DNA of 62,513 bases from a virus (Duplodnaviria; Caudoviricetes). This document shows, piece by piece, positions 3,218 through 62,364 of this stretch (positions within the stretch are counted from its first letter, which is position 1; every line of letters starts with the position of its first letter). The position numbers and the translations under genes were made by a program. The notes under the pieces were generated by a model, which did no database searches, had not been told where the DNA came from, and saw only the letters and a list, made by a program, of their open reading frames with translations. The DNA lies in IMG/VR virus record IMGVR_UViG_3300037424_002587, positions 1 through 62,513 of that record. One strand, written 5' to 3'.

Positions 3218-4558
3218 TCAGCCCGTTGGAAATTGCTCATCAGGTAGGTCTATTGAACCTGCTGGATCATCAGGAGGTGAAGGAGTTTGAGGACTTGCAG
3301 GTGCGCCTGCTCCCACAACATGAGCAATCTGACTAGCCATAGTAGTATGTATAGCAGCAGCTTCAGTAATAGAGGCACCAGCATCGATCTTTAAAGCAGC
3401 ACCTGCTGCTATATTTAACGCAGCTCCGCTTGTAATACCTATCATTGCTATTCCATCTAAAGTGGTTGTTTGTGTTTTGATTGCTAATGTTTGACAATCA
3501 ATTTCACATGTACCCCCAACCTTTAATGTGTAATTACCTTTGATATCAACCTCAGCATTACCTTCTATTGTAATTTTCTGGTCATTTTTTGCTTTTATTC
3601 TTATACTACTATCGGTATCCAAACAAATAAAATTACCTTTATTATCTTTTATAACAACTTTTTCACTTCCTGTAGTACTATCGATATAAACATCATGTCC
3701 TGATGCTCCGTGGATCCTAACTAATTCTTTATCTTTTTCAGCACTTAATTTTATAAATTGTGCACTTGGATTTCCATTTTTTCGACTTGCATCTATAATT
3801 CTTATATAAGCTTTACCATCTTTGCAATACGTGCTTGGGTCAAAAGCACTTTGTGATGGATCATTCTGATTTCTCGCGGAACGTGTACCTCGTTGTGCTG
3901 CATTACCCTCATTATTACTTTCATTTACCGGAGTATACATTTCAAGGATTTGACCTAATCTATCAATAATCATCAAAACTTCAGCTTGATCAGTATCTTT
4001 CGCTAATATTGTAGCTCCCTTAGGTGATTTCGCAATAACACGAATTTGAGTATCCTTTAAATCTTCTTGTGTTTCTTTAGGCGTAGTGAGCCCAGCCTCC
4101 TGCATCCAAGTTCCCATAGAAATAGAAATTGAAGGATCCGGAACATTCCAACTTGAAATAGTATTTATTTCTTGTTGTTTTTCTGGAATATATGGCCAAG
4201 TACCCAACCAAACAGGATAATTAGGATCTGCTTGTTCAAACATTATCCATACACTGGTTCCAATTAAAGGAATATCAAATTCTCCAGTATCTGATACACC
4301 ACCAGTACGAAAACAAGGCCAAGCCCAAGGTAAGGCCTCTACGCTAACTCCTGTTCCTGTTTTACTTTGTTCATTAGGAGAATTAAGATAATCTGCGCCC
4401 CCTACTGCAGCGCCGTGTATAGAGGGAACTCTAACTTTTATTCGCCCTAAACCCTTCGGATCAATATTATATTCGCATACCCCCCGCCAAAGGCCTACTG
4501 CTTTTTTAAGCGAGCCATATTCATCTCTTTTTAACTCATAAATTTGTGAGGGCTTCAT
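3218..4558 (-). CDS. Baseplate central spike (gp5/VgrG-like OB-fold plus beta-helix)
   Basis: DPKGLGRIKVRVP...WAWP...PLIGTSVWIMFEQADPNYPVWLG OB-fold motif, repetitive beta-strand C-terminus, and tail-module context. Confidence 0.8.
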   Translation of the reverse strand: MKPSQIYELKRDEYGSLKKAVGLWRGVCEYNIDPKGLGRIKVRVPSIHGAAVGGADYLNSPNEQSKTGTGVSVEALPWAWPCFRTGGVSDTGEFDIPLIGTSVWIMFEQADPNYPVWLGTWPYIPEKQQEINTISSWNVPDPSISISMGTWMQEAGLTTPKETQEDLKDTQIRVIAKSPKGATILAKDTDQAEVLMIIDRLGQILEMYTPVNESNNEGNAAQRGTRSARNQNDPSQSAFDPSTYCKDGKAYIRIIDASRKNGNPSAQFIKLSAEKDKELVRIHGASGHDVYIDSTTGSEKVVIKDNKGNFICLDTDSSIRIKAKNDQKITIEGNAEVDIKGNYTLKVGGTCEIDCQTLAIKTQTTTLDGIAMIGITSGAALNIAAGAALKIDAGASITEAAAIHTTMASQIAHVVGAGAPASPQTPSPPDDPAGSIDLPDEQFPTG

Positions 4559-4644
4559 GATTCGAAAGTCTCCTACTTTATGAAAAATTAAGCATTTTCA
4601 ACGGGTTAACTACTAACCCTCTAAGATGCCTAATGCCCATTCAC
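4556..4644. mobile_element. Internally deleted remnant of the tnpB element (tnpB 3' end plus downstream end)
   Basis: ctttatgaaaaattaagcattttcaacgggttaactactaaccctcta closely matches 57537-57584. It also carries a degenerate VNGALGILR segment and ends in ATTCAC. Confidence 0.8.
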
Positions 4645-4789
4645 ATTTTTTTATCTTGATCATTTTTCCAAGCTCGAATTTTGAGATTTTCAAGTCCGTC
4701 TTCATCATAATCATAATCTTTTGCTTCTATTTTTTGTACCAATTTTTTCAGGCCTCTCTCTCTTTTAAACTTTTAATTAATTTGTTCAT
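4641..4789 (-). pseudogene. Short frameshifted ORF (MNKLIKSLKE.. / GLKKLVQKIEAKDYDYDED..)
   Basis: Good RBS plus ATG at 4789. The frame is broken in an (AG)n run; removing 2 nt gives 48 aa ending at a TGA supplied by the mini-element. Confidence 0.35.
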
Positions 4790-4805
4790 GATATTTCTCC
4801 TTCCA

Positions 4806-5270
4806 CTACTTACCTTCTAATTTGCTTTTTAACCACCAAGGCCCTTTTTGGCCCGATTTTAATTTTGGACTATATTCAATTTTTTTAGCGAGTGATCCAC
4901 AAAAAGCTCCAGGATTATCTATTTTACCTGTCATTTTTTTAATACATTGAGTTATCCTGTGTTTTCTATCTCCTGTTAAACTATTCCAAAATTTCTTGAT
5001 AGATTCCATAGTCCAACCCCTTGGCATCTTACCCCATCCTGCTGCATTAACTTGTTTAGGGATTGTAATTTTGAATCCCAAAACTTTAGCAACTTTTATA
5101 GCTAATCTGCTATCTTTCTGATACAACGCTTTTATTTCTCTTGCAATTCTTTGTTGTTCATTTTCTTTCATTGTAATTTTGAACCCTAAAGCTTTAGCAG
5201 CTTTTAATGCGAGAGCTTTGTCTCTTTTGTATAATTCTTTTATTTCCGCAATTACTTTTTGTGTTTTCAT
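4806..5270 (-). CDS. Hypothetical virion-module protein with N-terminal tandem ~30-aa repeat
   Basis: EIKELYKRDKALALKAAKALGFKIT / EIKALYQKDSRLAIKVAKVLGFKIT; strong RBS AAGGAG. Confidence 0.7.
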   Translation of the reverse strand: MKTQKVIAEIKELYKRDKALALKAAKALGFKITMKENEQQRIAREIKALYQKDSRLAIKVAKVLGFKITIPKQVNAAGWGKMPRGWTMESIKKFWNSLTGDRKHRITQCIKKMTGKIDNPGAFCGSLAKKIEYSPKLKSGQKGPWWLKSKLEGK

Positions 5271-5283
5271 ATTTTCTCCTTTT

Positions 5284-5294
5284 AAAATAAATAG
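5284..5294 (-). promoter_or_regulatory. Candidate late-promoter motif CTATTTATTTT
   Basis: Identical 11-mer immediately upstream of the AAGGAG RBS of 4806..5270. Confidence 0.4.
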
Positions 5295-5311
5295 ACGAGT
5301 AATTGATTTTT

Positions 5312-19041: not shown

Positions 19042-19052
19042 AAAATAAATAG
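19042..19052 (-). promoter_or_regulatory. Candidate late-promoter motif CTATTTATTTT
   Basis: Identical 11-mer at the head of the structural module. Confidence 0.4.
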
Positions 19053-19084: not shown

Positions 19085-19140
19085 GTGAATTGCCTATAGT
19101 GTGTCCTGCGGACAACTATGGGTTTTCTCAACCTAAGATT
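19085..19140 (-). mobile_element. IS200/IS605-type mini element (hairpin repeat)
   Basis: Minus strand reads TTTAT|aatcttaggttgagaaaacccatagttgtcc..ggacacactataggcaattcac; near-identical to 45735-45786. Confidence 0.75.
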
Positions 19141-19180
19141 ATAAAAATTGATTGGATGGGTTTAAAGGAGGAGTTTTTGA

Positions 19181-19218
19181 AAAAAAAAAGACACACTGAA
19201 CTTCAGTGTGTCTTTTTT
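19181..19218. terminator. Bidirectional intrinsic terminator between replication and structural modules
   Basis: Near-perfect inverted repeat aaaagacacactgaa-c-ttcagtgtgtctttt flanked by A and T runs. Confidence 0.8.
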
Positions 19219-24545: not shown

Positions 24546-24893
24546 TCATTTTTGATTTTTTTCTTTTATTAGCTTAAAAAGATTCGGAGTTTCTCGGGCC
24601 ATTACTGTATCTATTATTTTTTCAATTTCCTCGTCCGTAAGTTTTAAAGGAGAAACCTCTTCCATAAGTTTCTTACAATGTTCAGAAAATAATACCATAG
24701 CAAGTTTTAACCCAATACCCACTGCATCAAAAAATAGCTTTTTTAACCAAACAAGATCTTCAGGAGAATTTATAAGCCGTGAATCATCCCATTCGTATAC
24801 TTTTTTACCCCTTAAATAAATCTTATATATATTCGAATCTTCTTCATCAATCACCTCAATAATTTCAAATTGCTTCTCCAATTGCTGACTCAT
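24546..24893 (-). CDS. Hypothetical protein
   Basis: ORF track; ATGA overlap with the upstream gene. Confidence 0.6.
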   Translation of the reverse strand: MSQQLEKQFEIIEVIDEEDSNIYKIYLRGKKVYEWDDSRLINSPEDLVWLKKLFFDAVGIGLKLAMVLFSEHCKKLMEEVSPLKLTDEEIEKIIDTVMARETPNLFKLIKEKNQK

Positions 24894-25561
24894 TTTAAAT
24901 CTTCCCCGTCAAGTTTTTTACACAGATTTATAGTTATTTTCTCAAATTGCCAATGCTGATGATTTTTTATATCTTCACTAAATTTACCATTTACATACTT
25001 TGCTACTGAATGGTTAAATGTACCATATGTAAAGCTATCTGCTAAGCGAACTACGTAGCCTTCACACTGATCCTGTTCAAACATTGGTTTATAAAGATGT
25101 TTGATTAGATTTTCGTCCCATTGTCCTTCATACAATATTGGTACATGTTTTAAATCCAATAATTTACACCATTCAACGGTTTCTTTCCAACTTAGACACG
25201 CATTCTTATCATCCCAAATAGAAAATACCATAAAATAGTCATCCAAGTACTTGTAATGTATAGTATGTTTAGCATAAAGATTTTCACCACACACTCTCCA
25301 ATTGTAAGGGATATTATAACAAATTCGAGCATGCAAGTTCTTGATCCATGTTCGAGAAGGATGAGTATTGCTATCAATAGATCGGGCATGACAATAATCA
25401 GAGTACAACGAAAAGTTCTCACCATCCATTTTCACATTTACTATCATATTTTTATCTATAAAATGATCTACATTTGGTAATATCTTATCATCCGTTGTGA
25501 TTACCTCACTCCAAGGTAAATGGAATGTACGAGGATATTTAATATGTTTTAGATGGTTCAA
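24890..25561 (-). CDS. RNA ligase family nucleotidyltransferase
   Basis: KYPRTFHLPWS, KMDGEN (motif I), GENL, EGYVVR, AKYV. Confidence 0.85.
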   Translation of the reverse strand: MNHLKHIKYPRTFHLPWSEVITTDDKILPNVDHFIDKNMIVNVKMDGENFSLYSDYCHARSIDSNTHPSRTWIKNLHARICYNIPYNWRVCGENLYAKHTIHYKYLDDYFMVFSIWDDKNACLSWKETVEWCKLLDLKHVPILYEGQWDENLIKHLYKPMFEQDQCEGYVVRLADSFTYGTFNHSVAKYVNGKFSEDIKNHQHWQFEKITINLCKKLDGEDLK

Positions 25562-25586
25562 AAATTTCTCTTTTTTTGAGTTATCT

Positions 25587-25769
25587 TTATGAATTTAATA
25601 TAGTAATACATAACGAAACTATTAAAGACAATGGCCAAAAAAGTATAAAGAGTGTGCAGCCTACAAAGGAAAATAATGAAGTATCTAAATCTGTTAAACC
25701 CCCTATAAATAGACGATGTATAACTGATCCTATCAATATCCATATGATTAATAATAATATAATATTCAT
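25587..25769 (-). CDS. Small membrane protein
   Basis: Two hydrophobic segments; FWPL motif. Confidence 0.5.
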   Translation of the reverse strand: MNIILLLIIWILIGSVIHRLFIGGLTDLDTSLFSFVGCTLFILFWPLSLIVSLCITILNS

Positions 25770-27986: not shown

Positions 27987-28439
27987 TTATGCCTTAAAAA
28001 AAGATTTAAAATGTTTAGTAGACTTCAACCTTAATTTGGAACACAATTGAAGTTCTATTGCGGTATGCTTAACTTCTTTTTCCAAATATCCCATAAAAGA
28101 ATTAATCTGCTCATTACAATGAGCTTCAGGGTGAATATCCATAATTTTAGAAAATATGTATCCACTCTGTCTTAATCTCGAGTCATGCACAACAATACTA
28201 AATCGATTTTCTATATCTTTTTCAGTATATCCCTTATTCTCATTCAAGGGTATAGTTAATCGAGATTCAGACCTAAGGGTATAATAAAGACGCTTACCTC
28301 TATGGCAAATATTTACATTAACCTCGACACATTTAATCATACCACTATTAAATTTCGAATATTCAACTATTCCCTTTTTAACAGCTCTAATAAATTTTTG
28401 CATAAAAGTCATTTTTTTTTTAATACTCCACCGAATCAT
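27987..28439 (-). CDS. Hypothetical protein
   Basis: ORF track; follows dnaB. Confidence 0.55.
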   Translation of the reverse strand: MIRWSIKKKMTFMQKFIRAVKKGIVEYSKFNSGMIKCVEVNVNICHRGKRLYYTLRSESRLTIPLNENKGYTEKDIENRFSIVVHDSRLRQSGYIFSKIMDIHPEAHCNEQINSFMGYLEKEVKHTAIELQLCSKLRLKSTKHFKSFFKA

Positions 28440-35965: not shown

Positions 35966-36069
35966 ATTAACATCCCAAAATGTCTTGATGGTCGAAATGA
36001 TCGTTGTTCATTGAACAATAAGGCTATCAAAGACCATTCGACAATTTTGGGTTTTCTCAATCTAAGATT
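35966..36069 (-). mobile_element. IS200/IS605-type mini element with extended hairpin (degenerate)
   Basis: Minus strand TTTAT|aatcttagattgagaaaacccaaaattgtcgaatggtc...gaccatcaagacattttgggatgttaat; shares its left segment with 19085 and 45735. Confidence 0.6.
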
Positions 36070-36082: not shown

Positions 36083-37000
36083 TTAAAACTCTTCAAGTTC
36101 TTCTTTTTCGATGTCTTCTTTTTCGATGTCTTCTTTTTCGATATCTTTAAGCTCTTGTTCTTTAACTAAAGTAGAATTCTCACCTCTTTTCTTTAACAAA
36201 GATTTTGGCAGATTAAGAACAAATTCATATTTAATATCCAATGGTAAATAGGTAGTTAAATAATTGAAATCTAACTTATTAGTTTTAGTTTCTTGTAGAG
36301 CAATTTTAGAAGGGGTATGATAAATATTAATATCCATAAAAGCTGTTCTTAATGCTTTTCCCTTATAACTCGAAACATAAGCTATAAGCTTTTCGACTGC
36401 AGCTGATGGGATAGAATAAATCCTACATAAAGACCCCAACTTCTTTTTACCCAAAATTCCCACCACAAATTGAAGTAGTCCTTCAGAAGCTTCACCCCTT
36501 TCCTTATTACCTAAATGTTCAATAGCTTCTTGTATCATAGAACTTAATTCGGTTTCTGTATTAAGATTTCGTTGAATAACTTTAGTTTTTAATGAAATCT
36601 CTTCCAAAGGAACATCAGTAGTAATCTTAATTTCTTCTACACCCAAACAACACTCATCTAAGGCGGCATTTAGATCTGCAGGTACTATAGATACAAATTG
36701 AAAGCTATTACCTCTTTTTCTAACATCTTTAACATTATTTGTTATTTTAAATAAACTAGAAATAGTATCCATTATAATAATTTTGCTTGTTTGTAAATTA
36801 AAACCCTCTTCGACAACTGCTAATAAATTTTCTACACTTGCAAACATTATTACTTTAGTGCGAATATCAGGACATTCCAAAAATTCAGCTAACTTTTTTA
36901 AATTTTCTTGAAATACATTAGTAATTATAAGGGGTTTGTATTTGTCTCTATCGATTAAAAGAGCAAGAACTGCAGGTGAGTACTGCGTAAAGCCTATCAT
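36083..37000 (-). CDS. Hypothetical protein
   Basis: 305-aa ORF; RBS and start lie within the mini-element end. Confidence 0.7.
   Translation of the reverse strand: MIGFTQYSPAVLALLIDRDKYKPLIITNVFQENLKKLAEFLECPDIRTKVIMFASVENLLAVVEEGFNLQTSKIIIMDTISSLFKITNNVKDVRKRGNSFQFVSIVPADLNAALDECCLGVEEIKITTDVPLEEISLKTKVIQRNLNTETELSSMIQEAIEHLGNKERGEASEGLLQFVVGILGKKKLGSLCRIYSIPSAAVEKLIAYVSSYKGKALRTAFMDINIYHTPSKIALQETKTNKLDFNYLTTYLPLDIKYEFVLNLPKSLLKKRGENSTLVKEQELKDIEKEDIEKEDIEKEELEEF
36101..36145. repeat. 15-bp tandem repeat x3 encoding DIEKE
   Basis: ttctttttcgatgtc x2 plus ttctttttcgatatc. Confidence 0.8.
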
Positions 37001-37089
37001 GATTCAAAATTCCTTTCTTTAATAATATTCCTGTTATATTTTTTATGAATCACCCATAGTTGTCCACAGGACAACTATGGGTGATTCAC
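36998..37089. mobile_element. Mini element carrying both ends of the tnpB unit; perfect palindrome
   Basis: ttcaaaattcctttcttta is identical to 57523-57541; tgaatcacccatagttgtcc-aca-ggacaactatgggtgattca is a 20-bp perfect inverted repeat. Confidence 0.8.
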
Positions 37090-42448: not shown

Positions 42449-42675
42449 GTGAATTACCCATCGTGTCCTACGGATAACTATGGACTTCTAAGTTCTTAGA
42501 ATTCTCTAATGAGAACGCCTCCCTTAGTTTTTGTTTAGAGACCGATTGCATCCCACAACCAGTCTATATTGAAAGTTTCTTAAGTATTTTCTTTAAAGAT
42601 TAACTATCTTCGTTGATCTTTAAAAAATTTAAGAATACTTCTTTCATATTTAATGGGGTTGATTAACCTAGCATT
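42449..42675 (-). ncRNA. Orphan TnpB omega-RNA-like locus within a non-autonomous IS200/IS605 element
   Basis: Minus strand: TTTAT|aatgctaggtt..., a long hairpin, then ctggttgtgggatgcaatcggtctctaaacaaaaactaagggaggcg... (resembles tnpB 3'-end GCGxQSxxKQKxxEA) and a terminal hairpin ending GGGTAATTCAC. No tnpB ORF. Confidence 0.6.
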
Positions 42676-42913
42676 ATAAAAAATAACTTCCATTATTTCG
42701 AGTTTCCTTAGGATATTCTCTAAGTATCTTATCATGTTGAGATACGTTCCATTTTACAATCATGCCATCCTCGGCACAAACAGCATAATTAGCTTCACCA
42801 TAAATTTTAAAATAAAGTACATTCTTCCAATTAAATAAAATAGGTGAATACATTTCTGCTATAATTAGATAATTTTTATTTACAGAAATAAAATCTTGTT
42901 GAGCTTTACACAT
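42674..42913 (-). CDS. Hypothetical protein
   Basis: ORF track; AAGGAG RBS; stop formed at the element junction. Confidence 0.5.
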   Translation of the reverse strand: MCKAQQDFISVNKNYLIIAEMYSPILFNWKNVLYFKIYGEANYAVCAEDGMIVKWNVSQHDKILREYPKETRNNGSYFL

Positions 42914-45641: not shown

Positions 45642-45734
45642 GATTGCATTAAGTACCTACATAATATTTCTGCATTTGATATCAACACTTCTAACTTCTA
45701 ATTTCAACACTTTCTTACAATCAGGGCGCTTTAT

Positions 45735-45786
45735 AATCTTAGGTTGAGAAAACCCATAGTTGTCGAAGACACTATGGGTGATTCAC
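45735..45786 (+). mobile_element. IS200/IS605-type mini element (52 bp)
   Basis: TTTAT|aatcttaggttgagaaaacccatagttgtcgaagacactatgggtgattcac; supplies the TGA stop of 45783..46043. Confidence 0.8.
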
Positions 45787-49020: not shown

Positions 49021-49070
49021 CCCTTTTTGTTCAACTCCTCTTAACATTTACGTAGTTTACATCTTTTTAT

Positions 49071-49133
49071 GTATGAATGTAAAATCACTATCCTAAAAGG
49101 ATTTATTGACCATAGAGATAGTGGGTGATTCAC
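49071..49133 (+). mobile_element. Degenerate IS200/IS605-type mini element
   Basis: TTTAT|gtatgaatg..cactatc...gatagtgggtgattcac; supplies the TGA stop of 49130..49435. Confidence 0.6.
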
Positions 49134-50252: not shown

Positions 50253-50708
50253 TTAACAAATTTGTAATATTTTAACTTCTGCCTCCTTCAAAAGACCTTC
50301 AGTAAATTCATCAGGATATGGTTCTTTATAAAAGATTTTACAAATTCCTGCACTTATTATCATTTTAGCACAAGTAGCACAAGGCATATGCGTTACGTAA
50401 ATGGAGCAGCTATTGAGGTCTCTTCGTGCATATATTATAGCATTTTGTTCTGCATGCATAGCACGACAAATTTCAATTCGCTGTGCTGATGGAATATCCA
50501 ATTCCGCTCGCAAACAACCACGTTCATCACAATGTTTTAATTTACTTGGAATACCGTTATAACCCGTTGATATAATTCGATTCTCTGTGTCTACTATAAC
50601 TGCACCTATTTTTCTCCTTATACAGGTTGATCTACAGGAGGTCAACTCAGCAATACTCATAAAATATTCGACCCATGGAAGTCTCTTTTTATTATATTCG
50701 GTAGACAT
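50253..50708 (-). CDS. dCMP deaminase
   Basis: RSTC.RRKIGAVIV, STGYNG, HAEQNAI, PCATCAKMII. Confidence 0.9.
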   Translation of the reverse strand: MSTEYNKKRLPWVEYFMSIAELTSCRSTCIRRKIGAVIVDTENRIISTGYNGIPSKLKHCDERGCLRAELDIPSAQRIEICRAMHAEQNAIIYARRDLNSCSIYVTHMPCATCAKMIISAGICKIFYKEPYPDEFTEGLLKEAEVKILQIC

Positions 50709-53454
50709 TATCAGCTCTTATCTCCCTTGTTGCATTAGTGATATCAACCACTCGCTTTGAATTACTTACTATGGCTTCGTAATTATAGCAACTATGATTT
50801 ACTGCAATAATAATTGTTTCAAAACCACATAAATTATCATAACGAGGCGTTATTGAATAACTATGCAATGTTTTAAAAATATCGCCATCTCTTTTTAATA
50901 TAGGGATGTAAGGATCATTATAATCAATGATTAAGCCTTTTTCTTCTAAATAATCCATTAAGCGTAATACTCCTGACTCGCGTATATCATCAATATCAGG
51001 TTTATACGTAACACCTAATATAAGTATATTAGCCTCGGGTAGGAGAATATGCCGACCTAATATCTCACAAATTTTGGTAGCAATGTATTTTGGTTGACCC
51101 CAATTAATTGCTTCAGCTTCCGAAATTAAACGAGATTTACATTCAAACTTTTTAACACGATAAGTTAAATAGGTGGGATCAGTTGAAATGCAATTATGTA
51201 CTATAAGACCATTTGAGGTAATTATAGTATGATTATTCTCTATTTCTGCAGAATAGACAAAAGTATTTGAAGGCTCAATCATGATATCTTTAACTTTTAA
51301 GGCATAATAATTTCCATAATCTTTAACATAATCATATATAATTCTTTTTTGAAGATTATTAAAGTATGTTTCAAATAAAGATTTACGTATTTCACCAAAC
51401 AATTTTTTTGCGTTTTCTAAATCTTCTGGACCTGAGAGCGAAAGTAATCCATCTCTTTTTTGAATTTTAGGAATTACACCAAAATCTTTCAATAATAAAC
51501 CAATTTGTTGAAATAAATTTGGACTTGAAGTAAAATAATTTATAGAAGCACTTGTTTTGTTATAAATCCTCCCCTTAGCATCTTTTTGTTTCCCTGAAAA
51601 AATATAACTTCCTCCATCTCCTCTAAATAATCCACTTAATAATTCAAATTTTAAATCAGAGGAAGCATTATAAAAAAGAGCTGGAATTTGCTTTTCATAA
51701 CAATTTTTTCCACATTTTAAAATATTTTCAAATAAAAATCCAAGAAAATATGAAGGAATTCTAATGCAAGTTGCTTTAAAATTTTTATCTTTAAAAACCA
51801 ATGGTTTTAATTCAAACTTAGTTTTTAATATAGACACAACATCCTCTATATATTCAAATTCTGTTGAATTAAACGTAAAGGCTGTTTTTAAACTATCTCC
51901 ATTATTCAGGACACAACCTTCACTCAAATAATAACCAATTAATCGAGCAAAATCCTTATCTACAAAGATAATACAGGGAAACTTGCTAAAGCTGGGACCG
52001 CTTCCTCTGCACAAATAAAGATTAGATCTGGGGATATTTAAATCTTTTTCTAATTCTAAATATTTTTCTAAAGGTAAATAATCAGAAATAAAATAATTCA
52101 TCGCAATTCGTAAATTACCTATTTTTTTCTTTATGGTATCTTTGTAATCTTTAAAACTGCCTGTTTTAAGTTTAACTCTCACTTTCGGATACACAGAAGG
52201 ATCTAGATATTCAAGAATATCTAGATTCATAGAGTTCCAAAAATTTTGTTTCGGAAGATTTTTATTTAAAATCAACAAATCCCCAGATTTAATATCTTTC
52301 GCATATTTGATCTGAATCCCTTTCTCCTCAATGAGCATAGGATGCAAATCACTTACTCGAAGAGAATACCCATAATGGCAATTTATATCAATCATATTCC
52401 CTATAAATTTTCTTTTTGAAAAACAATTAACTTTTTCGTAAGTGATACTTTTATCAGATATGTTAAAAGATAAACATTTTGTGTTTTCAGGATAAAAGAA
52501 TTCGGTATTATTTACTATTTCTTTACGACAATTTAAAGAATCTACATAAGGACCAAAATCAACAATTTTATGCTCTTTGTTTTCGATTAAGAAGAGTTTT
52601 GATTTTCCATCTAAACAGTGCCCTCCGACGAAGCCTGGAGTAAACTTTTGAAATCCAAAAGGTTTTGTAGAGGCTGCTTCTACAACTTTCCAAATATCAA
52701 TACCCATCTGTTCACACAAATAACGCATTTCATTTATTAAAGCAATATTAACTGCACGATAAGTATTTTCTAAAATTTTTGCAGTTTCTGCAATTTCAAC
52801 AGAATCCACAGGTATCACTTTATCAAATACCTGTTGATAGAGAACTTGCACTCTTTCCAAACATTTTTTTGTTATTCCTGAAACTAATTTAGGAATTTGT
52901 TTGATTGGAATTTTACTACCAGGGTTTTCACGTTCGGGTGAAAATGCTACAAAATAATCTCTTCCCACTACTTTACCTGTTGCCTTTTGAATAACATTAC
53001 ATATTTCTTCTCGTGTAGTACCCGGGTATGAAGTGCTCTCTAAAATAATTAACTGATTCTTACAGAGATATTGTTTCAGTTGATTCACAACATTTCTCAC
53101 GTAGGAAAGATCTGGTTGTCTATATTCATTTAATGGTGTAGGTACCGTTATAATTATAACATCCATGTTTTCCAATATAGAAAAATTAGAAGTAGGATAA
53201 AAGGTACAATTCGCAATTCTATCAGATTGAATTGTTGAAATATATGATTTATTACTGCGAATTGTATCAATTTTATTTTCATCAATGTCAAATCCAACTA
53301 CACGAAATCCAGCTTCACAAAAGGTGAGAGTAAGAGGAAGCCCCACATATCCTAAACCTACAACACCTATCCATACTTCTTTAGTTGTAATTTTTTCAAT
53401 TAAATCTAAATCTTTATCAGAAATTTTCTTTAAAATATTATTACGATTATCCAT
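50692..53454 (-). CDS. UDP-glucose/UDP-GlcNAc/GDP-mannose dehydrogenase family protein with intein
   Basis: VGLGYVGLP, VPTP, LESTSYPGTT, FSPER.NPG, KILENTYR.VNIA..NE, GGH|C, LGVTYKPDIDD.RES. Confidence 0.9.
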   Translation of the reverse strand: MDNRNNILKKISDKDLDLIEKITTKEVWIGVVGLGYVGLPLTLTFCEAGFRVVGFDIDENKIDTIRSNKSYISTIQSDRIANCTFYPTSNFSILENMDVIIITVPTPLNEYRQPDLSYVRNVVNQLKQYLCKNQLIILESTSYPGTTREEICNVIQKATGKVVGRDYFVAFSPERENPGSKIPIKQIPKLVSGITKKCLERVQVLYQQVFDKVIPVDSVEIAETAKILENTYRAVNIALINEMRYLCEQMGIDIWKVVEAASTKPFGFQKFTPGFVGGHCLDGKSKLFLIENKEHKIVDFGPYVDSLNCRKEIVNNTEFFYPENTKCLSFNISDKSITYEKVNCFSKRKFIGNMIDINCHYGYSLRVSDLHPMLIEEKGIQIKYAKDIKSGDLLILNKNLPKQNFWNSMNLDILEYLDPSVYPKVRVKLKTGSFKDYKDTIKKKIGNLRIAMNYFISDYLPLEKYLELEKDLNIPRSNLYLCRGSGPSFSKFPCIIFVDKDFARLIGYYLSEGCVLNNGDSLKTAFTFNSTEFEYIEDVVSILKTKFELKPLVFKDKNFKATCIRIPSYFLGFLFENILKCGKNCYEKQIPALFYNASSDLKFELLSGLFRGDGGSYIFSGKQKDAKGRIYNKTSASINYFTSSPNLFQQIGLLLKDFGVIPKIQKRDGLLSLSGPEDLENAKKLFGEIRKSLFETYFNNLQKRIIYDYVKDYGNYYALKVKDIMIEPSNTFVYSAEIENNHTIITSNGLIVHNCISTDPTYLTYRVKKFECKSRLISEAEAINWGQPKYIATKICEILGRHILLPEANILILGVTYKPDIDDIRESGVLRLMDYLEEKGLIIDYNDPYIPILKRDGDIFKTLHSYSITPRYDNLCGFETIIIAVNHSCYNYEAIVSNSKRVVDITNATREIRADNVYRI
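51193..52617 (-). mobile_element. Class 1 intein with LAGLIDADG endonuclease at the catalytic Cys of the sugar dehydrogenase, 475 aa
   Basis: GGH|CLDG...SDLHP...LIGYYLSEG...LLSGLFRGDG...LIVHN|CIS. Confidence 0.9.
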
Positions 53455-53721: not shown

Positions 53722-56016
53722 TTATCTCCTTACAACTTTAATGTGCCCATTTTCTAAAAGAACTACACACTCTTTAACATTTTCTAAAGAGGGTGTTTCA
53801 AACATGGTTTCTAGCATGATACTTTCCATAATAGATCTTAAACTACGAGCTCCAGTACCCATATCCAGTGCCTTTTGTGCAATATATTCAAGAGCTGACT
53901 TATCAAATTTTAAATCAATGTTATCCATTAATAATAATTCTTGATATTGCTCTACGAGAGAATATTTAGGAATTGTTAAAATTTTAATGAGATCATCTAT
54001 GTCTAACTCATCCAATGTAACAATAATAGGAACTCTACCTACCAACTCAGGTATTAATCCGTATTTGATTAAATCCCTATGTGTAACCTGTTTCAAATAC
54101 TTTTCTACTTTATCTGAAGAAGAAACCTTTTCAGTCAAAAAACCAACATTAGAGTTTCCTTGTCTTTCCGCAATTAATTCGGCCAATCCATTGAAGGCAC
54201 CCCCAAGTATAAATAATATATTACGAGTATCTATGCGAACATATTGCTGTCCTGGATGTTTTCTTTGACCCGTAGGTTGCACATTAATAATAGAACCCTC
54301 TAATAATTTCAATAAAGCCTGCTGAACACCTTCACCTGAAACATCGCGGGTTATTGAAGGATTTGCTCCATTCTTACGTGCTTTTTTATCTATTTCATCA
54401 ATATAAATAATTCCCCGAGTTGCTTTTTCTATATCCGAATTTGCATTAATCAGCAATGTTTGCAACATTGTTTCGATATCTTCGCCAACGTAGCCCGCCT
54501 CTGTCATAGAGGTAGCATCTACAATAGCAAATGGAACATTTAAAAATCGAGCTAATGTTTGACACAGAAGTGTATTATGCGTCACCACAAATCCATCTGT
54601 AATGTATAAATGATCAGGGTGATCGATCATTATACATTGTGTTTCTTGTATTCCAAGGTATTTTATTGTTTTAATTTTACATCTTAATGTTATAGGAATC
54701 GAACGAATAGCTCTTTCACTTTTCCTACCAAGCTTCATTAGTATTTCAGGATTAGAATGTCTAATACAACATTTGAACCACATTCTACATCTTTTTCGAA
54801 TACCTTCTTTTGTTTTATAAAAAGATTTTTTAATCCTAATAGTACAAAGACCGCCTAACGATCTTATTAAATACTGAACATCTAAGGCTAATTGATGGTT
54901 ACTCGTAGAATAAGAAACATCCCCACTTGCATAGCTATCTTCATATTTAGATTTTTGACATTTTCTTTTATTAACTTCTCCATCTATATCCATTAAACCC
55001 CTTAATAATTCTAAACGCTGCTCAACTGAGCTTTCTTTGTAAATTTCTGGTATAAATTTTTCATAGGAGTGTTTGTCATAAAGACCCAAGTCCCTTAATA
55101 TCTCGATATAAACATTCGAGTTTTCTTTTTTTCCATGTGTTATATTGTAATCACAACTCCTTTTAAATTTTAAATAATAACCCTGTTCCAATTTAGAAAT
55201 CAAATTATTAAGAATTTGATCCTCTATATTAGAAAAATTTACAACCCCCGTAAGATTACCATCGCCTAACAAAAGTCCTAATAAATAAGGATTCATAGGA
55301 AGATCTTTTAAACTATTTTGAATAAATTTACATAAAGGCACATACAATGGACTTTTTACTTTTTTCTTATATTCTATTATTTCCTTTAAAGACATAATTC
55401 GTTCAGAATTTTCAACTTTAATGTGCTCTTTATGATTATTTCGATGTTTTCGTGTCCAATTATAACTAAAAACTTTCCATAAATGATTCTCATCACAATC
55501 TGTAGTTCGACCATCTTCAAACGTTATACGATAAGTTGGCCTTAATCCTTGTGGAAATACTCCCCTAACTGATGCAGATTTTCCCTTAGGAGTTGATACC
55601 ACATCACCTACTTTAATATCTCCCATCTTTATCCAACCATCAGGTGTTTTAATCTGTGAGTAAAGAGGTTGTGCTTTTCCACTACCCGTAGGTCCAATCA
55701 ACATAATATTACTTTTTTGAATTTCAGTGGTAATATTACGGATTCTTTTATAATGATTATAAACAGCAACAGCTAAAGATTTTTTAACTTGTTCCTGGCC
55801 TATTACATAGTCATCTAAGAAATTTTTTATTTCAATAGGTTTGAACGAACAACTACCAATTTTCTTTTCAAGAGCTTCATTTTCTAAAAATTTAGTACCA
55901 AATGCAATACATTCATTACAAATAAATGCACCTGAACCTTCCAGTAATTTCCCAACCTCAGAAGTAGTCCGGCCACAAAAAGAACATTTATTTTCTTGAT
56001 AATCTGAAGAAACCAT
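53722..56016 (-). CDS. clpX: ATP-dependent Clp protease ATPase ClpX with intein
   Basis: CSFCG zinc domain, YVIGQ..VK..LAVAVYNHYKR, KSNI.LIGPTGSGK|TLL, TEAGYVGED, SITRDVSGEGVQQALLK, TGARSLR. Confidence 0.95.
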   Translation of the reverse strand: MVSSDYQENKCSFCGRTTSEVGKLLEGSGAFICNECIAFGTKFLENEALEKKIGSCSFKPIEIKNFLDDYVIGQEQVKKSLAVAVYNHYKRIRNITTEIQKSNIMLIGPTGSGKAQPLYSQIKTPDGWIKMGDIKVGDVVSTPKGKSASVRGVFPQGLRPTYRITFEDGRTTDCDENHLWKVFSYNWTRKHRNNHKEHIKVENSERIMSLKEIIEYKKKVKSPLYVPLCKFIQNSLKDLPMNPYLLGLLLGDGNLTGVVNFSNIEDQILNNLISKLEQGYYLKFKRSCDYNITHGKKENSNVYIEILRDLGLYDKHSYEKFIPEIYKESSVEQRLELLRGLMDIDGEVNKRKCQKSKYEDSYASGDVSYSTSNHQLALDVQYLIRSLGGLCTIRIKKSFYKTKEGIRKRCRMWFKCCIRHSNPEILMKLGRKSERAIRSIPITLRCKIKTIKYLGIQETQCIMIDHPDHLYITDGFVVTHNTLLCQTLARFLNVPFAIVDATSMTEAGYVGEDIETMLQTLLINANSDIEKATRGIIYIDEIDKKARKNGANPSITRDVSGEGVQQALLKLLEGSIINVQPTGQRKHPGQQYVRIDTRNILFILGGAFNGLAELIAERQGNSNVGFLTEKVSSSDKVEKYLKQVTHRDLIKYGLIPELVGRVPIIVTLDELDIDDLIKILTIPKYSLVEQYQELLLMDNIDLKFDKSALEYIAQKALDMGTGARSLRSIMESIMLETMFETPSLENVKECVVLLENGHIKVVRR
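54574..55674 (-). mobile_element. Class 3 (Ala1, WCT) intein with LAGLIDADG endonuclease in ClpX Walker A, 367 aa
   Basis: AQPLYSQIKTPDGW...CDENHLW...TQCIMI...YITDGFVVTHN|T; closely similar to the DnaB intein. Confidence 0.9.
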
Positions 56017-56300: not shown

Positions 56301-57527
56301 CTACTTTTGTAGTATTAAAAAGTACTTCGCATATTTGGTTATTAAAGTCTCCCAAATATGATCTATCGAAGCAGGTATATGTACACCATTTTTAACAATA
56401 TAAGACTCTTTAGCTTTTAAGGCTAAATTCATTTTAAATATATTTGACTTTATATCCCAAAATTTTGAAAAATCATTGTAATCTAAACCTTCGATACCTG
56501 TAGTGCCTTTCTTTTTTAAAAAATGATAAAGTGTTTCATTAGATTCCCATTTGTAAATATTGGGGTTAAAACTTGAAAATCTTTCATCTTTAGGAGGGGC
56601 CCCTCTTAAACCCTCTATTAAATTCAACCAACCTTTTTTTTCATAGAACTTTAACTTAAAAATTTTTTCATTCAAAGTATCTTTCAAAAATTTAAAATAC
56701 TCTTTTTTACTATTATAAGGTAATGAAAATGAAAAATAGGATTTTAAAGAATTGCAAAACGAATCATAGTCATCTATTACCATGAGACACCTTGGTTTGT
56801 AAAAAACTTTAAACATTTGAGCTAAAAAAGTAAAAGGTCGCATTACACCTATTTTAAAATTTTTACAATTTTGAACATCTCTTAAATAACGACATTTGAT
56901 ATAACAATTATTTTCAATTAAAAAATTTTGTTTGTTCCTTCCAAATAACCTTTTACAAGAAGCATTTTCAAGATTATTTTTGTTAATATAACATCGATAA
57001 CTATCTTTTTTTCTAAAAATACCAAGTTCTAAATCTGTAATTTTTAAAAAATTAACTAATTTAGTATCAAAAGTAATTAGAAATGCATTTGGAAATAATT
57101 TCAATGCTGAATATATTGTATCTTTTTTATCATTTGTTTTCAATTTAATAATATTTGTATTGTTAAATTCAGAAAACTTATTATCTAAACAATTAAAATT
57201 CCAATCAGGTAAAAATTTTATCTTATGATTTTCAATATTTAAAAAAGATACCCCTTCTTCTTCATTGTCTGAAAAAATTTGAAATCTACTTAATTTTTTC
57301 TTTGAACTTTTAATATAAGGTTTTTCAAACAAACTCAATACATCTCTTACCCCTAAACTATATTCTAATAATAACACATTATCTAAAGATAATGTCTTCC
57401 TATTTTGTTCCAAAAATAACGTGTGCTGTTTATGTTGATCTAAAAATAAACTACTTCTTCCATATAAGAGACAATAAGACTCCTGATCTCTCTTGTTAGC
57501 TCGTAGATATAAAGTTTTATGGTTCAA
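56301..57527 (-). CDS. Hypothetical Lys/Phe-rich protein
   Basis: 408-aa ORF; its RBS and TTG start lie in the tnpB-downstream end. Confidence 0.6.
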   Translation of the reverse strand: MNHKTLYLRANKRDQESYCLLYGRSSLFLDQHKQHTLFLEQNRKTLSLDNVLLLEYSLGVRDVLSLFEKPYIKSSKKKLSRFQIFSDNEEEGVSFLNIENHKIKFLPDWNFNCLDNKFSEFNNTNIIKLKTNDKKDTIYSALKLFPNAFLITFDTKLVNFLKITDLELGIFRKKDSYRCYINKNNLENASCKRLFGRNKQNFLIENNCYIKCRYLRDVQNCKNFKIGVMRPFTFLAQMFKVFYKPRCLMVIDDYDSFCNSLKSYFSFSLPYNSKKEYFKFLKDTLNEKIFKLKFYEKKGWLNLIEGLRGAPPKDERFSSFNPNIYKWESNETLYHFLKKKGTTGIEGLDYNDFSKFWDIKSNIFKMNLALKAKESYIVKNGVHIPASIDHIWETLITKYAKYFLILQK

Positions 57528-58848
57528 AATTCCTTTCTTTATGAAAAACTAAACATTTTCAATGGGTTAACCACTAACCCTCTATTGAGTAGTTTTTCTT
57601 CAAAAAACTCATCTTGAAGAAAATCATTCCCAATTACTTTTCTTAAAATTCCTAATGCACCATTAACATCAGCATTTAATAGTTGACCGTAGCTACTACG
57701 AAACAAACCACGTTTAACTCTTTTTCCAAGGTATGTTTCATGGTGTTCCAACGTCTCATTGGCTAAATGATCAACTTTACTCGTGTAGGATTCTTCCGTT
57801 GTTAACACAACAATACCTACTTCTTCAGCTTTGTAAGTTATTTGGCTAATGAGTGTGTTAAATGGGATACTAACAAATTTTTGATTAGTAGCCTTACTTA
57901 GATTAACTCTTTGTTTCCAACCATCGTTTTTTCCAATAACAATCGTTCCAATGTTATGTTGAAGACAATAATTAATAATGAATCTTGATGTATGGTGCAT
58001 GTAGTTTTGAACACGCATGTTCCTTTTGTGAGTAAGTCGAAGTATACGTTTCGAACTTCCCTTTCCACCTACATAACTTTGATACACTGCCTTTATCTTG
58101 TTATAATATTGATTAATGGACTTCAAAATCTTACCTTTAATGAGAATAGGAAGTTGTCCTGACTCATTTAACAAGTGGTCAAAATGGTCTTTGACCATTG
58201 AGACCCCCACACAAGTTGCAAGATTATTAATGCCTAAATCAATACCAAGGTATAGTTCACTTTTTAAGTTTTCATCTATTTCAATCTCCTTTTTATAAAC
58301 AACCTCAACCACATAACATGTATGCTGGGGTATAATTCTAACAAGTTGTAAGTTGTTAGTAATTTTAGTTTTTAATGGCTGAATGCCACTTCTCTTTGGA
58401 AAATGTATGAAACCATTCTTAATCTTACACTGAACATAAGTGAATACCACAATGTTTTTACCATTTTCCTCTTTGTAATGTGGAATTCTTGGTTTGCCAG
58501 TAAATTTCTTAGGGTGTTTAGAATACTCAATACTTGCTCTAACAAAACTTTTCCAATTTTTCTCTAAAAGCAGGAGTATCTGTTGAGCACTATTATGAGG
58601 TAAAGCTCTAAAACTTTCTTCTTTCTTCATTAAATGATACAAATCATTGTAGCTTATATACTTTCCCGTGTTAAAGTAAACATTTCGCATGTAAAAATTA
58701 GCACGGTTGTAGAGATTTTTAGATAAAAAACATAATCTGTCAAAAGTTTTAGACTCTAAAAATATATGACGTTCACATCTTGTTAAAATGGTATTCACCT
58801 CCTTTCACGAAGAAGCCCATATTGCCATAGGCAACGTGAGTGATTCAC
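57519..58848. mobile_element. Non-autonomous IS200/IS605-family (IS1341-like) element, tnpB only
   Basis: tnpB flanked by ends that recur in shorter copies (4556, 36998, 62258); hairpin end gaagcccatattgccataggcaacgtgagtgattcac; no tnpA in the window. Left boundary is 57519-57543. Confidence 0.8.
57539..58798 (-). CDS. tnpB: RNA-guided endonuclease TnpB
   Basis: LCFLSKNLYN, GIDLGINNL (RuvC-I), IVIGKN, EESYTSK, KRGLF, NADVNGALGILRK (RuvC-III). Confidence 0.95.
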   Translation of the reverse strand: MNTILTRCERHIFLESKTFDRLCFLSKNLYNRANFYMRNVYFNTGKYISYNDLYHLMKKEESFRALPHNSAQQILLLLEKNWKSFVRASIEYSKHPKKFTGKPRIPHYKEENGKNIVVFTYVQCKIKNGFIHFPKRSGIQPLKTKITNNLQLVRIIPQHTCYVVEVVYKKEIEIDENLKSELYLGIDLGINNLATCVGVSMVKDHFDHLLNESGQLPILIKGKILKSINQYYNKIKAVYQSYVGGKGSSKRILRLTHKRNMRVQNYMHHTSRFIINYCLQHNIGTIVIGKNDGWKQRVNLSKATNQKFVSIPFNTLISQITYKAEEVGIVVLTTEESYTSKVDHLANETLEHHETYLGKRVKRGLFRSSYGQLLNADVNGALGILRKVIGNDFLQDEFFEEKLLNRGLVVNPLKMFSFS

Positions 58849-58850
58849 TA

Positions 58851-59192
58851 TCACGCAAACTTTTGCAGTCCTTTTTTTATCTTCAATTTAGCGGCGATAT
58901 CTAACTTTTGTAAGGCTTTTTTAAATGTAGGATTTGTAGCTAACTTAGAAAGATCTTGAACCATGTTGAAATCTTTCATAAATAATAGTACAGATACTGC
59001 CGCTAATTTTTTATTAGCGAAATAACCCTCATGAAGATCTTCACCTGAAGCCTCATGTGCCACTTTCCACAATCCATTCTTTTCATATAAAAATATACCG
59101 GGTAAATCTAACAACTTATAGACATTAATGAGTACTTTATGTCCACCTAACTCAATTTTTGCATTGTCCTTTTTAAGACGAATATCAGGCAT
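58851..59192 (-). CDS. Hypothetical protein
   Basis: ORF track; TAATG overlap with the upstream gene. Confidence 0.6.
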   Translation of the reverse strand: MPDIRLKKDNAKIELGGHKVLINVYKLLDLPGIFLYEKNGLWKVAHEASGEDLHEGYFANKKLAAVSVLLFMKDFNMVQDLSKLATNPTFKKALQKLDIAAKLKIKKGLQKFA

Positions 59193-59521: not shown

Positions 59522-59539
59522 TTTTTATATCCCTTTCAT

Positions 59540-59704: not shown

Positions 59705-59781
59705 CACTAATATTTTTCACCTCTCACAGTATTGAATTTTAAATCCAAATAGCTCCAAAAGTTATACTAACGAAAAACACT

Positions 59782-60783: not shown

Positions 60784-60818
60784 GTTAATTTCCTCTCTCT
60801 GTTAAACTTACCAATTAA

Positions 60819-61583
60819 TTATTTTTCATTTTTATGAACTTCTATGATAGCGGGTAATACATTGGGATCTTTCACCCATTCACAATACTCGGTCCAGGTC
60901 ATTCCAAGAAAATTATGTAAAGTAATTGATCCCTTTAAGGATCCATGCCAACGTGCTACAAAATCATTAATTTCACACATTTGCACTTCACCTAACACAC
61001 ATCTTTCAACAAAAGTTTTCTCCTCTTGACTTTGTTCCACTTCATCGTTTCGTTTTACTTGCCCAATGTGAAAAACATCCTGATTTAAAAAGAATCTCAT
61101 ACTCGATTGTTTACCTAATTTAAAATGGTGCATTTTAAGTTTATTTGTAGAATTAGAACAATAGATCACCTCAGGTTTTATTTTACAGATACAGCTTAAA
61201 TAATCACAATAGATACCAAGATCAAGTTTTTCATCTAAAAGTTTTGAACGTCGAACCCACATCAATCCTCGAAACAATTCCGAAAGATCCTCAGTATCAA
61301 TTTTACTCTCTTCTTTATGATTTTCAAAAATAACTAAAGGAATTGCTATTGGATCTTCATATCTTTCGGATTCAACAAGCCAATAAGTATTTTGCCAATC
61401 CATACCATCGATCCAGACTTCAGTATAATATTTATCTATTGTAGGTGTTCCTAAATATAAACCCGCAGGATATGGCCAATTTTCGGAAGGTATATTAAAA
61501 TCTTTTCTCCCCTTTTCAATAACGCCAACTGCATTTAATAGATAAGTAGGTGCTAACATCACTGTATTATAAGGTATTCCCAT
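60819..61583 (-). CDS. Hypothetical protein
   Basis: ORF track; the RBS/start matches the mini-element end. Confidence 0.65.
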   Translation of the reverse strand: MGIPYNTVMLAPTYLLNAVGVIEKGRKDFNIPSENWPYPAGLYLGTPTIDKYYTEVWIDGMDWQNTYWLVESERYEDPIAIPLVIFENHKEESKIDTEDLSELFRGLMWVRRSKLLDEKLDLGIYCDYLSCICKIKPEVIYCSNSTNKLKMHHFKLGKQSSMRFFLNQDVFHIGQVKRNDEVEQSQEEKTFVERCVLGEVQMCEINDFVARWHGSLKGSITLHNFLGMTWTEYCEWVKDPNVLPAIIEVHKNEK

Positions 61584-61603
61584 GATTCAATTCCTTTCTT
61601 TCA
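61581..61603. repeat. Fragment matching the tnpB-downstream end (aaagaaaggaattgaatcATG)
   Basis: Similar to 36998-37021 and 57519-57541; could also be only a shared RBS. Confidence 0.4.
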
Positions 61604-62260
61604 ATATGTAATCCATAAATTATTTGATACTTTTTCAATTTCTTTATAAAGATTTACAAGCTCTTCTTCAGAAAAACTTGGGATATTTAACTTTTTTGTT
61701 ATTCTACTTGCTTGATGTTGAACAATCACAGGAAATTTAGATTTAAATTTATGATCATAAATTTGACAATACGAGATTGGTAATTTATATAATTTAATTG
61801 TTTTATTTTGAGCAATCATACTTTGTAGTATTCTTTGCTCGAATAAAACTTTATTTATTTTATTAGCTTCAATCCAATTCTCTATAAGATACCTCACTTT
61901 ATCACAGTTGTTCAAATAAAGAGTACCACTCCATAAATGATTAATATGACTATAGAAAGCTGCAATATCGATATTATTAAGATTTTCAAAAAGTTGGGGA
62001 TATTGAACAACTTCACCATCAGCATCTATAAACACAACTGGTGCTTTAACTCGAGTTAGAGCACGCAGTATAAACGTTGCTTTATAATCAGTTGCATCTT
62101 TCCAACTACCCAAAGAGGGTATACCTTCAATATAATAGTCAAGTTCAAATTTTTCTAAACTTGCTATTAAGCGCTTAATCTGCTCCGCGTAAATAGTATC
62201 TTCTGTGTAGTAAGAAATAACTACAAAATTCTTACCCTTCCTTTTAAAAAGGATGTTCAT
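61601..62260 (-). CDS. Nucleotide-diphospho-sugar (GT-A) glycosyltransferase
   Basis: ISYYT..Y...L..SL, W....YKA.FI, FIDAD (DxD), SGTLYL, EQ..L, LP.SYC.I.D, HQASR. Confidence 0.8.
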   Translation of the reverse strand: MNILFKRKGKNFVVISYYTEDTIYAEQIKRLIASLEKFELDYYIEGIPSLGSWKDATDYKATFILRALTRVKAPVVFIDADGEVVQYPQLFENLNNIDIAAFYSHINHLWSGTLYLNNCDKVRYLIENWIEANKINKVLFEQRILQSMIAQNKTIKLYKLPISYCQIYDHKFKSKFPVIVQHQASRITKKLNIPSFSEEELVNLYKEIEKVSNNLWITY

Positions 62261-62364
62261 AATTCGAACGTTTCCTTTCTTTATGAACCATTTAACTCCT
62301 TCTCACGAAGAAGCCTGTAGTTGTCCAATGGACAAAGACCATTGGACAACTATGGGTGATTCAC
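62258..62364. mobile_element. ~105-bp mini element joining both ends of the tnpB unit with tnpB deleted
   Basis: ttcctttctttatgaa (=57530-57545) joined to ctccttctcacgaagaagcc (~58799-58817) and hairpin tagttgtccaatgg..ccattggacaactatgggtgattcac. Confidence 0.85.

Follow-up and report, generated by a model that had tools for sequence, protein, structure and literature searches.

The virus contig IMGVR_UViG_3300037424_002587 carries, dispersed between closely packed genes, a set of short hairpin-bearing repeats and a tnpB gene, of the RNA-guided nuclease kind, framed by the same boundary motifs. The window analyzed here is the whole record, a linear contig of 62,513 bases that belongs to a very large phage genome, with a CheckV completeness of ~24% and a GC content of ~31%, whose long open reading frames (ORFs) all lie on the minus strand. 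Among the encoded proteins are a tail sheath, a baseplate hub, a tape-measure-like protein, a DnaB-like helicase, a clamp-loader-like ATPase and a ClpX-like protein. The gene set consists of 67 crude gene calls with a median spacing of 24 nt; the genome is ~90% coding, and the hairpin units are placed in the larger gaps between the calls. The dense packing of phage genes should make the majority of insertions lethal; even so, tnpB genes are numerous in large phages.

A preliminary description of this DNA had proposed about nine related units, described as tnpB-linked mini-elements that donate stop codons at one end and a ribosome-binding site (RBS) plus start codons at the other. The repeats are real and non-random, and related sequence is present at every one of the listed sites. 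They are not, however, a single element type but two nested layers (Table 1), the nine units mixing three modules: the hairpin with TGATTCAC, a TTTATAATCTTAGGTTGAGAAAA leader, and an RBS-like module. On the coding strand, module H reads GTGAATCA and then the hairpin, module T reads the hairpin as in H and then TTTTCTCAACCTAAGATTATAAA, and the RBS-like module, M, reads TTCATAAAG(A/T)AGGA..TT(C/T)GAA(T/C)CAT. With at most one mismatch, GGTGATTCAC occurs 11 times against 1.82 expected, a count reached in none of 100 shuffles; seven of the matches are inside the listed units, and the four in coding sequence (8484, 24779, 53079 and 59586) look like chance. Three pieces had been missed, at 42653-42680, 940-970 and 25553-25593.

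The best explanation, which we hold with about even confidence, combines a first layer of IS200/IS605-type hairpin units with a second, overlapping layer formed by the right end of tnpB with module M. The repeat system is then one of ends that supply stop codons, and probably ribosome-binding sites, for the neighbouring phage genes.

Table 1. Position of the hairpin units, of tnpB and of the copies of module M in the window (aa, amino acids)
Feature	Coordinates	Strand	Remarks
Composite unit A	57543..58848	+	After TTTAT 57538-57542, ends in TTCAC 58844-58848; tnpB inside, on the opposite strand
tnpB, 419 aa from GTG	57539..58798	-	Better Shine-Dalgarno spacing for an ATT (58786)
Hairpin unit directly 5′ of tnpB	58798..58848	+	Leader CTCCTTTCACGAAGAAG, diverged hairpin, then TGATTCAC
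M at A (TTCATAAAGAAAGGAATTTTGAACCAT)	57519..57545	-	Proposed tnpB right-end terminus; TTG 57527 starts a 408-aa ORF
Unit B, tnpB-less derivative	4582..4644	+	Last 45 nt of the tnpB 3′ end with hairpin, 16 nt, ATTCAC
M at B	4556..4584	-	Shine-Dalgarno + ATG (4558) of baseplate hub/spike gene
Unit C, C-type, 80 nt	62285..62364	+	After TTTAT 62280-62284; TGA 62363-62361 ends upstream ORF
M at C	62258..62287	-	Shine-Dalgarno + ATG (62260) of 219-aa ORF
Unit D, perfect 20-bp palindrome	37047..37089	+	After TTTAT 37042-37046; z-score -11.2
M at D	36998..37022	-	22/23 identical to M at A; Shine-Dalgarno + ATG (37000) of 305-aa ORF
T-type unit, 52 nt	45735..45786	+	After TTTAT 45730-45734; TGA 45785-45783 ends Lar-like ORF
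Decayed A-type hairpin unit	49071..49133	+	After TTTAT 49066-49070; TGA 49132-49130 ends DUF4325 ORF
T-type unit, opposite orientation	19085..19140	-	After TTTAT 19145-19141
T-type unit, long extended hairpin, decayed end	35966..36069	-	After TTTAT 36074-36070
Hairpin + TAATTCAC only	42449..42483	-	No clear TTTAT; weak fold
Left part of a T-type unit (TTTATAATGCTAGG..)	42653..42680	-	TAA 42676-42674 across TTTAT|AA ends 79-aa ORF
M alone, site E	61581..61600	-	No hairpin, no TTCAT; ATG 61583
M + ~7 nt of tnpB 3′ end, site F	940..970	-	Read through by ORF 925..1929
M-like junction without hairpin, site G	25553..25593	-	TAA ends 60-aa membrane ORF; TTG 25561 starts RNA-ligase-like gene

Hairpin units bounded by TTTAT and TTCAC

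The hairpin units are bounded as TTTAT|...TTCAC| and lie in both orientations. When they are read in element orientation, TTTAT stands directly before nine of the ten units and TTCAC is terminal in eight, the hairpin being located 6-29 nt after TTTAT and 8 nt before the unit end. Three units, those at 19085, 35966 and 42449, run opposite to the remaining ones, and six of the ten are inserted on the plus strand, opposite to the phage genes. Folding was carried out on ten stretches, comprising nine unit hairpins and one hairpin at the 3′ coding end of tnpB. Judged by their z-scores, four of the unit hairpins are clear (45730, -4.0; 35966, -3.5; 62284, -5.7; 37045, -11.2), three are moderate (19085, -2.7; 58798, -2.2; 4576, -2.6) and two are weak (42449, -1.0; 49067, -0.6). 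Most units have a single hairpin placed to suit both ends; unit C has a small second one, and units A and B contain two unlike hairpins. Just upstream of the unit at 19085, a strong stem at 19180-19215 (minus strand) is followed by a run of ~10 T and has the look of an intrinsic terminator.

The pair formed by TTTAT and TTCAC is identical, compared by motif, to that of ISGst2 and its derivatives in Geobacillus stearothermophilus, where according to Meers et al. TTTAT is the transposon-adjacent motif (TAM) and TTCAC the transposon-encoded motif (TEM), which differ at positions 3 and 5 (10.1101/2023.03.14.532601); the initial attribution of the ends to the IS200/IS605 type is thereby borne out. 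The orientation from TTTAT to TTCAC is fixed because the outer motif varies (TTTAT in the window; outside it, CTAAT in a metagenome contig and CTGGT at the IMG/VR locus L138) while the inner TTCAC is constant. The same behaviour of the two motifs led us to reject a reading in which the element would run in the tnpB sense and GTGAA would be its target motif.

Near-identical DNA is present in Logan contigs from sediment and soil metagenome runs, X1, X2 and X3 among them; no RNA run is among those listed. Contigs that diverge exactly to the left of 45730, the first T of TTTAT, number five in X2 and two in X3. A contig of X1 contains a C-type unit that ends in ..GTTC and continues as ATTAG.. without module M, and at L138 another C-type unit, with 94.6% identity to the 45786 hairpin over 37 nt, also ends in ..GTTC without M. 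The same unit is found at sites with unrelated flanks and no target duplication, as is the case for the window copies, for the 45730-divergent contigs and for L138. Taking into account (i) the boundary motifs; (ii) the presence of both orientations; (iii) the contigs diverging at 45730, and (iv) the copies in unrelated flanks, the hairpin units are, as far as their sequence tells, mobile and non-autonomous elements of the IS200/IS605 type. Since no clean empty allele was found in the Logan contigs, the boundaries are those given by the comparison of copies. The two exact hairpin/end strings had no match in IMG/VR or in GTDB genomes, the T-type leader had none in IMG/VR, and a distant blastn search of the T-type unit against plasmids and phages gave chance-level matches only. 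The C-type sequence ..TTAAA(A)TG(G/T)TTC resembles the tnpB 3′ end ..TTGAAAATGTT..TTC, a short match which hints that the C-type units could be deletion derivatives of the TTTAT-to-TTCAC tnpB segment.

The unit at L138 (59-122, virus record G001) is located inside the 3′ end of a 107-residue ORF beside an RtcB-like gene, and the ORF reads through the unit, gaining ~19 residues. No protein is shared between G001 and the window at E 1e-5 (tblastn).

In the first layer of the model, gene-less and mostly single-hairpin IS200/IS605-type derivatives would insert just 3′ of TTTAT and end in TTCAC. They would be mobilized by a Y1 transposase encoded elsewhere, and their insertions would survive at gene junctions. 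Repeated intergenic hairpins able to carry expression signals do exist in dense genomes without being of this kind, as in the promoter-early stem-loop cassettes of T4-type phages and in bacterial miniature inverted-repeat transposable elements such as the Correia elements; to our knowledge, neither has TTTAT/TTCAC boundaries or a link to tnpB. The units might be immobile, with hairpins that act in phage regulation as terminators, promoters or RNA-stability elements and owe their spread to recombination. The 45786 unit, on the mRNA strand, consists of a stem followed by TTTTCTC, and units in the other orientation carry TATAAT over TTTAT|AAT, with promoter-like matches at 36096-36067 and 42701-42673, as such cassettes might. 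Nevertheless, promoter-like matches number 65 against 65.6 in shuffles and terminator-like ones 7 against 5.3, none of these seven being at a hairpin unit; moreover, the units occur in both orientations, one of them is embedded in the 3′ end of an ORF on a phage contig unrelated to this one, and their boundary motifs match exactly those of a characterized transposon. We consider immobile cassettes very improbable.

Stop codons at the unit ends

The coding-strand readings of TTTAT and TTCAC are A-TAA-A and G-TGA-A, respectively. At three of the six plus-strand units (A, B, C, D, 45786 and 49133) the arriving ORF has as its stop the TGA of GTGAATCAC, at 45783, 49130 and 62361, just as the preliminary description had it; the pseudo-ORF assigned there to 4641 does end in the TGA of unit B, the GTGAAT of the unit starting at 4644 and not at 4641. 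The ORFs upstream of 58848 (A) and 37089 (D) terminate on codons of their own, 2 and 9 nt ahead of the unit. Removal of the units in silico converts ..ATG AAG TGA into ..ATG AAA TAA at C, ..GGA AAG TGA into ..GGA AAA TAA at 49133 and ..AGA ATG TGA into ..AGA ATA TAA at 45786; hence, the target contained the gene's native TAA, and the element end puts a stop back without a change of frame. The frame at unit B, judged by eye, is the same as in the other units. In the inverted orientation it is the TTTAT|AA boundary that supplies the TAA ending the ORF 42674..42913.

The complements of target and end would therefore be interchangeable stops, and this is the rule we offer for a harmless insertion at a gene junction: when the TAA of the target is the stop of the gene, the inserted end would put TGA in frame, leaving the protein unchanged or with one residue changed. 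The exchange of TAA for an in-frame TGA comes from the similarity of TTTAT and TTCAC and not from design. ATAAA occurs 311 times on the coding strand, 36 of these occurrences not being fully coding and seven holding the stop of a called gene. Three to four stop swaps in six units is what a survival filter is expected to leave in a 90%-coding genome, with no need for a special adaptation. The donation of stops is automatic, given the TAM/TEM similarity and selection on surviving insertions, and need not be an adaptation. The splitting of genes by insertions, which had also been suggested, was seen at none of the sites.

Upstream of the baseplate hub gene is a 247-nt gap with a 13-codon ORF and the open frame that ends in the TGA of unit B; a decayed small gene may be present there (4644-4805, minus strand).

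The tnpB gene and module M

The protein encoded by tnpB matches the Pfam families OrfB_IS605 (2.5e-15) and Cas12f1-like TNB (1.3e-08), both above the Pfam cut-offs, and its motifs GIDLG, TEESYTS and NADVNG are intact and align with those of 10 of 11 relatives, the eleventh row (L046) being a frameshifted translation that does not align. The assignment of the catalytic residues is provisional, the match to a PDB sequence being too weak to confirm it. Its best protein matches, at 43-48% identity, include IS607 of Helicobacter pylori and IS607-like elements of Ktedonobacteria, Chloroflexia and cyanobacteria (43-46%), and many of the relatives have a serine recombinase gene upstream. On protein similarity, tnpB belongs to an IS607-lineage clade. 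The connection of the units with tnpB holds. The gene is framed by TTTAT (57538) and TTCAC (58848), to whose direction it is antisense; the complement of that TTTAT provides its stop TAA, and its Shine-Dalgarno sequence is supplied by the leader of the hairpin unit 58798..58848. Unit B, which lacks the gene, has 84% identity to A over 70 nt. In X1, contig depth is 38.9-79.9 at five positions within the ends of A, 20.8 at positions in the tnpB interior and ~8-9 along the phage backbone; thus, short derivatives with both ends outnumber full copies.

A hairpin in the 3′ coding end of tnpB (57542-57600, z-score -4.1) is common to the relatives. The fold of the right end has a z-score of -2.4 and corresponds to no Rfam family; a search of Rfam around tnpB gave three chance-level matches only (E 2.9-8.9). 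In seven multi-copy groups of relatives the likeness between copies extends 30-71 nt beyond the stop, the terminal motifs being GAACTGT|, GTACTAT|, GAACTAT|, TAACTAT|, GAACGGT|, AGACAT| and TGAATG|. The relatives closest in their 3′ DNA (L018, L030, L045 and L046) continue past the stop via ..AAATAAAAAC.. and end in ..TTTTTAATA(T/C)CAT|. Left ends of the closest relatives opening with the right-end motif, which would form terminal direct repeats, were considered and found unsupported by a three-way alignment. In L045 and L046 the left ends, ~30-130 nt upstream of tnpB, contain a long-range hairpin whose stems are fully compensatory (GGTGGTATCC/GGATACCAC versus TTGAGAGGC/GCCTCTCAA), which suggests a conserved structure.

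Module M is present at seven sites, A (57545), B (4584), C (62287), D (37049), E (61597), F (968) and G (25593). Its core TTYGAAYYAT occurs eight times on the coding strand against 1.9 expected (maximum of 6 in 200 shuffles), six of the eight within 24 nt of a called start. At four of the seven sites M provides the Shine-Dalgarno sequence and the AT of an ATG, in each case the first start available to a long ORF (4558, 37000, 61583 and 62260), these ATGs sitting in ..GAAT(C/T)ATG; at two others the first start is a TTG inside M (57527 and 25561). Of the starts previously ascribed to the module, the four ATGs therefore stand, and that at 57527 proves to be the internal TTG. M differs from the RBS of the genome at large, since AAAGGAG-type sites are found at the majority of the 67 called starts, and GAATCATG at three places.

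The module had been taken as the other end of the hairpin mini-elements, and this part of the preliminary description finds no support in that form. M is outside the hairpin-unit boundary; it is absent from the T-type units and from two of the three C-type copies, and stands alone at 61583 and 25561. On the other hand, it follows every tnpB 3′ end seen, namely those of A, B and F and of two variant tnpB copies in X1 and X2. It ends in GAA(C/T)CAT, 20 nt past the tnpB stop, and the likeness among the M copies stops there; the 18 nt after M at A, where a guide might be expected, have no second copy in the window that could be its target. Because it follows all of the tnpB 3′ ends seen and resembles the right-end termini of the relatives, M is more likely the terminus of tnpB's own right end, and probably represents the 3′ end of the tnpB guide-RNA scaffold. 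The string of the RBS-like module had no match in IMG/VR.

We propose for the second layer that an IS607-lineage tnpB would bring its right end, the last 20-25 nt of which (..TTCATAAAGAAAGGAATTTTGAAYCAT|) would be M. The composite would arise from a tnpB that has M as its right end and carries a Y1-type hairpin unit on its 5′ side, so that an internal TTTAT and the TTCAC of the 5′ unit would frame a Y1-excisable segment excluding M. M, located just outside the TTTAT boundary, would persist after decay or departure of the remainder of the element and, with AAAGGA ~10 nt before ..AT|G, would now serve several phage genes as Shine-Dalgarno sequence and start. We put forward as a tentative extension that the last 20-25 nt of the guide-RNA scaffold could be a portable Shine-Dalgarno-plus-AT(G) cassette, left as a scar by Y1 excision of tnpB and driving translation of at least four phage genes, the baseplate hub among them. 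If true, the scar together with the stop-codon-neutral TTTAT/TTCAC pair would let a transposon family colonize dense gene junctions without polarity, and a guide-RNA or right-end segment would be a candidate case of reuse as a translation start signal.

In the model of the preliminary description there would be a single element in the tnpB sense, with GTGAATCAC plus the hairpin as its left end and ..GAATCAT as its right end; it would be moved by an enzyme such as an IS607-type serine recombinase, the mini-elements being internal deletions that keep both ends. From the 5′ side 62 nt remain in C and from the 3′ side ~33 nt, B retains GTGAAT and the last 66 nt, TGAATCA is common to both termini, and the X1 depths and the IS607-like clade of tnpB also fit. 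We regard it as unlikely, however: T-type units (three in the window and at least seven contigs) end at TTTAT without M, two independent C-type copies stop at the same ..GTTC| without M, no conserved motif precedes GTGAATCAC, and the relatives show no matching left-end rule.

Several observations weigh against the two-layer explanation as well. Most units contain one hairpin in place of the pair, one per end, that is normal for IS200/IS605 elements, and the joints in the metagenome contigs have sides of only 21-25 nt and are flagged as weak by the tool. The window contains no Y1 transposase gene (no match to PF01797), which is weak evidence given that the record is only ~24% complete. The placement of tnpB antisense to the TTTAT-to-TTCAC direction is non-canonical, and Y1 excision would cut the gene off from M. 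The right-end similarity to the relatives consists of a 7-nt motif and AT-rich alignments, and MAFFT set M against an internal motif of the relatives. M is less alike between A and B (17/25) than is the adjacent tnpB end (40/45), and at 61583 and 25561 it stands without element remnant, with the look of an ordinary gene junction.

These last two features also speak for M being the phage's own gene-junction cassette (stop, Shine-Dalgarno, spacer, start), a translational operator or recombination cassette of ~7 genes at whose TTTAT the elements sit. At four sites the end of M coincides exactly with the start codon; the upstream stop is a TAA or TGA of M at A, G, E and the restored C site; the first half of M (AAAGAAAGGA) resembles many other RBSs in the window; and in the genes at 4558 and 25561 the alignments to PHROG profiles begin near residue 1. 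Such a cassette would not be expected to follow all five tnpB 3′ ends seen and yet be present at only ~7 of 67 gene starts; nor does it account for the match of the M terminus with the right-end termini of the tnpB relatives. The M-bearing genes share no evident function, and M is absent from G001. A phage cassette is a possible but rather doubtful origin of M.

Related systems and genomic setting

The two-layer explanation, with hairpin units overlapping a tnpB right end, can be set beside several described systems. ISGst2 and its gene-less derivatives, the PATEs, for which Meers et al. report that alternative boundaries are tolerated, have in common with the window units the subterminal hairpins, the non-autonomous gene-less copies, the presence of tnpB and the need there would be for TnpA in trans; as far as that account extends, they differ in that the window units are mostly single-hairpin, that tnpB is antisense and of an IS607-like clade, and that no TnpA was found in the window (10.1101/2023.03.14.532601). 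IS607 and the IS607-like elements share with the window tnpB the 3′ coding hairpin, and their right ends, 30-71 nt past the stop with a terminus of the ..AC(N)(A/G)T type, are those to which its right end was likened. Unlike in IS607, no serine recombinase gene adjoins the window tnpB, as judged from its surroundings and not from a resolvase search of the whole window (the upstream ORF 58851..59192 has no Pfam or PHROG match), and its 5′ side is only ~50 nt long, all of it hairpin unit. Two of three Microcystis copies have GG-type targets, which are absent here. An IS607-lineage tnpB framed backwards by IS605-type boundaries bears on the change of transposase partners by tnpB.

IStrons, fusions of a group I intron with IS605 or IS607 elements, use TTGAT, ATTAT or TTTAT as target, carry tnpB and, as they are described, insert without harm to the host gene (PMC4227781). 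No group I intron was detected by Rfam in the window or around tnpB, and harmlessness here would come from the mimicry of stop and RBS in the DNA, not from splicing. Solitary IS605 end hairpins are located just after or across the stops of lipoprotein genes in Borrelia plasmids, the similarity entering the coding end; the genes are plasmid-borne, and the available portion of that report describes no TAA-to-TGA swap rule or RBS module (PMC2775950).

The phage itself stands apart. Near and distant searches of INPHARED gave nothing useful, the protein search for relatives gave distant domain matches only, no relative of the SMC-like or clamp-loader-like genes was found in IMG/VR, and matches in metagenome contigs have only 33-36% identity. 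No tRNA genes were found in the window, and Rfam gave no match over it at gathering scores.

Intein/LAGLIDADG homing-endonuclease domains lie inside three minus-strand genes, UDP-glucose dehydrogenase-like (50692-53454), ClpX-like (53722-56016) and DnaB-like (28420-30879); the phage is heavily colonized by several kinds of selfish element. A single ORF at 22736-24523 (minus strand) fuses a GIY-YIG plus NUMOD3 endonuclease module to a 5′-3′ exonuclease domain. The 223-residue product of the RNA-ligase-like gene at site G (24890-25561, minus strand) covers only positions 132-341 of a 342-position RNA-ligase PHROG and the whole of a 219-position family, and may be a short or split form of the enzyme. 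Finally, exact copies of CTATTTATTTT lie on the minus strand at 3145-3155, 5284-5294 and 19042-19052, 13-24 nt upstream of the starts at 3123, 5270 and 19018. With one mismatch its count is not above chance; two of the three downstream genes adjoin baseplate genes, and it may be a late-promoter-like motif.

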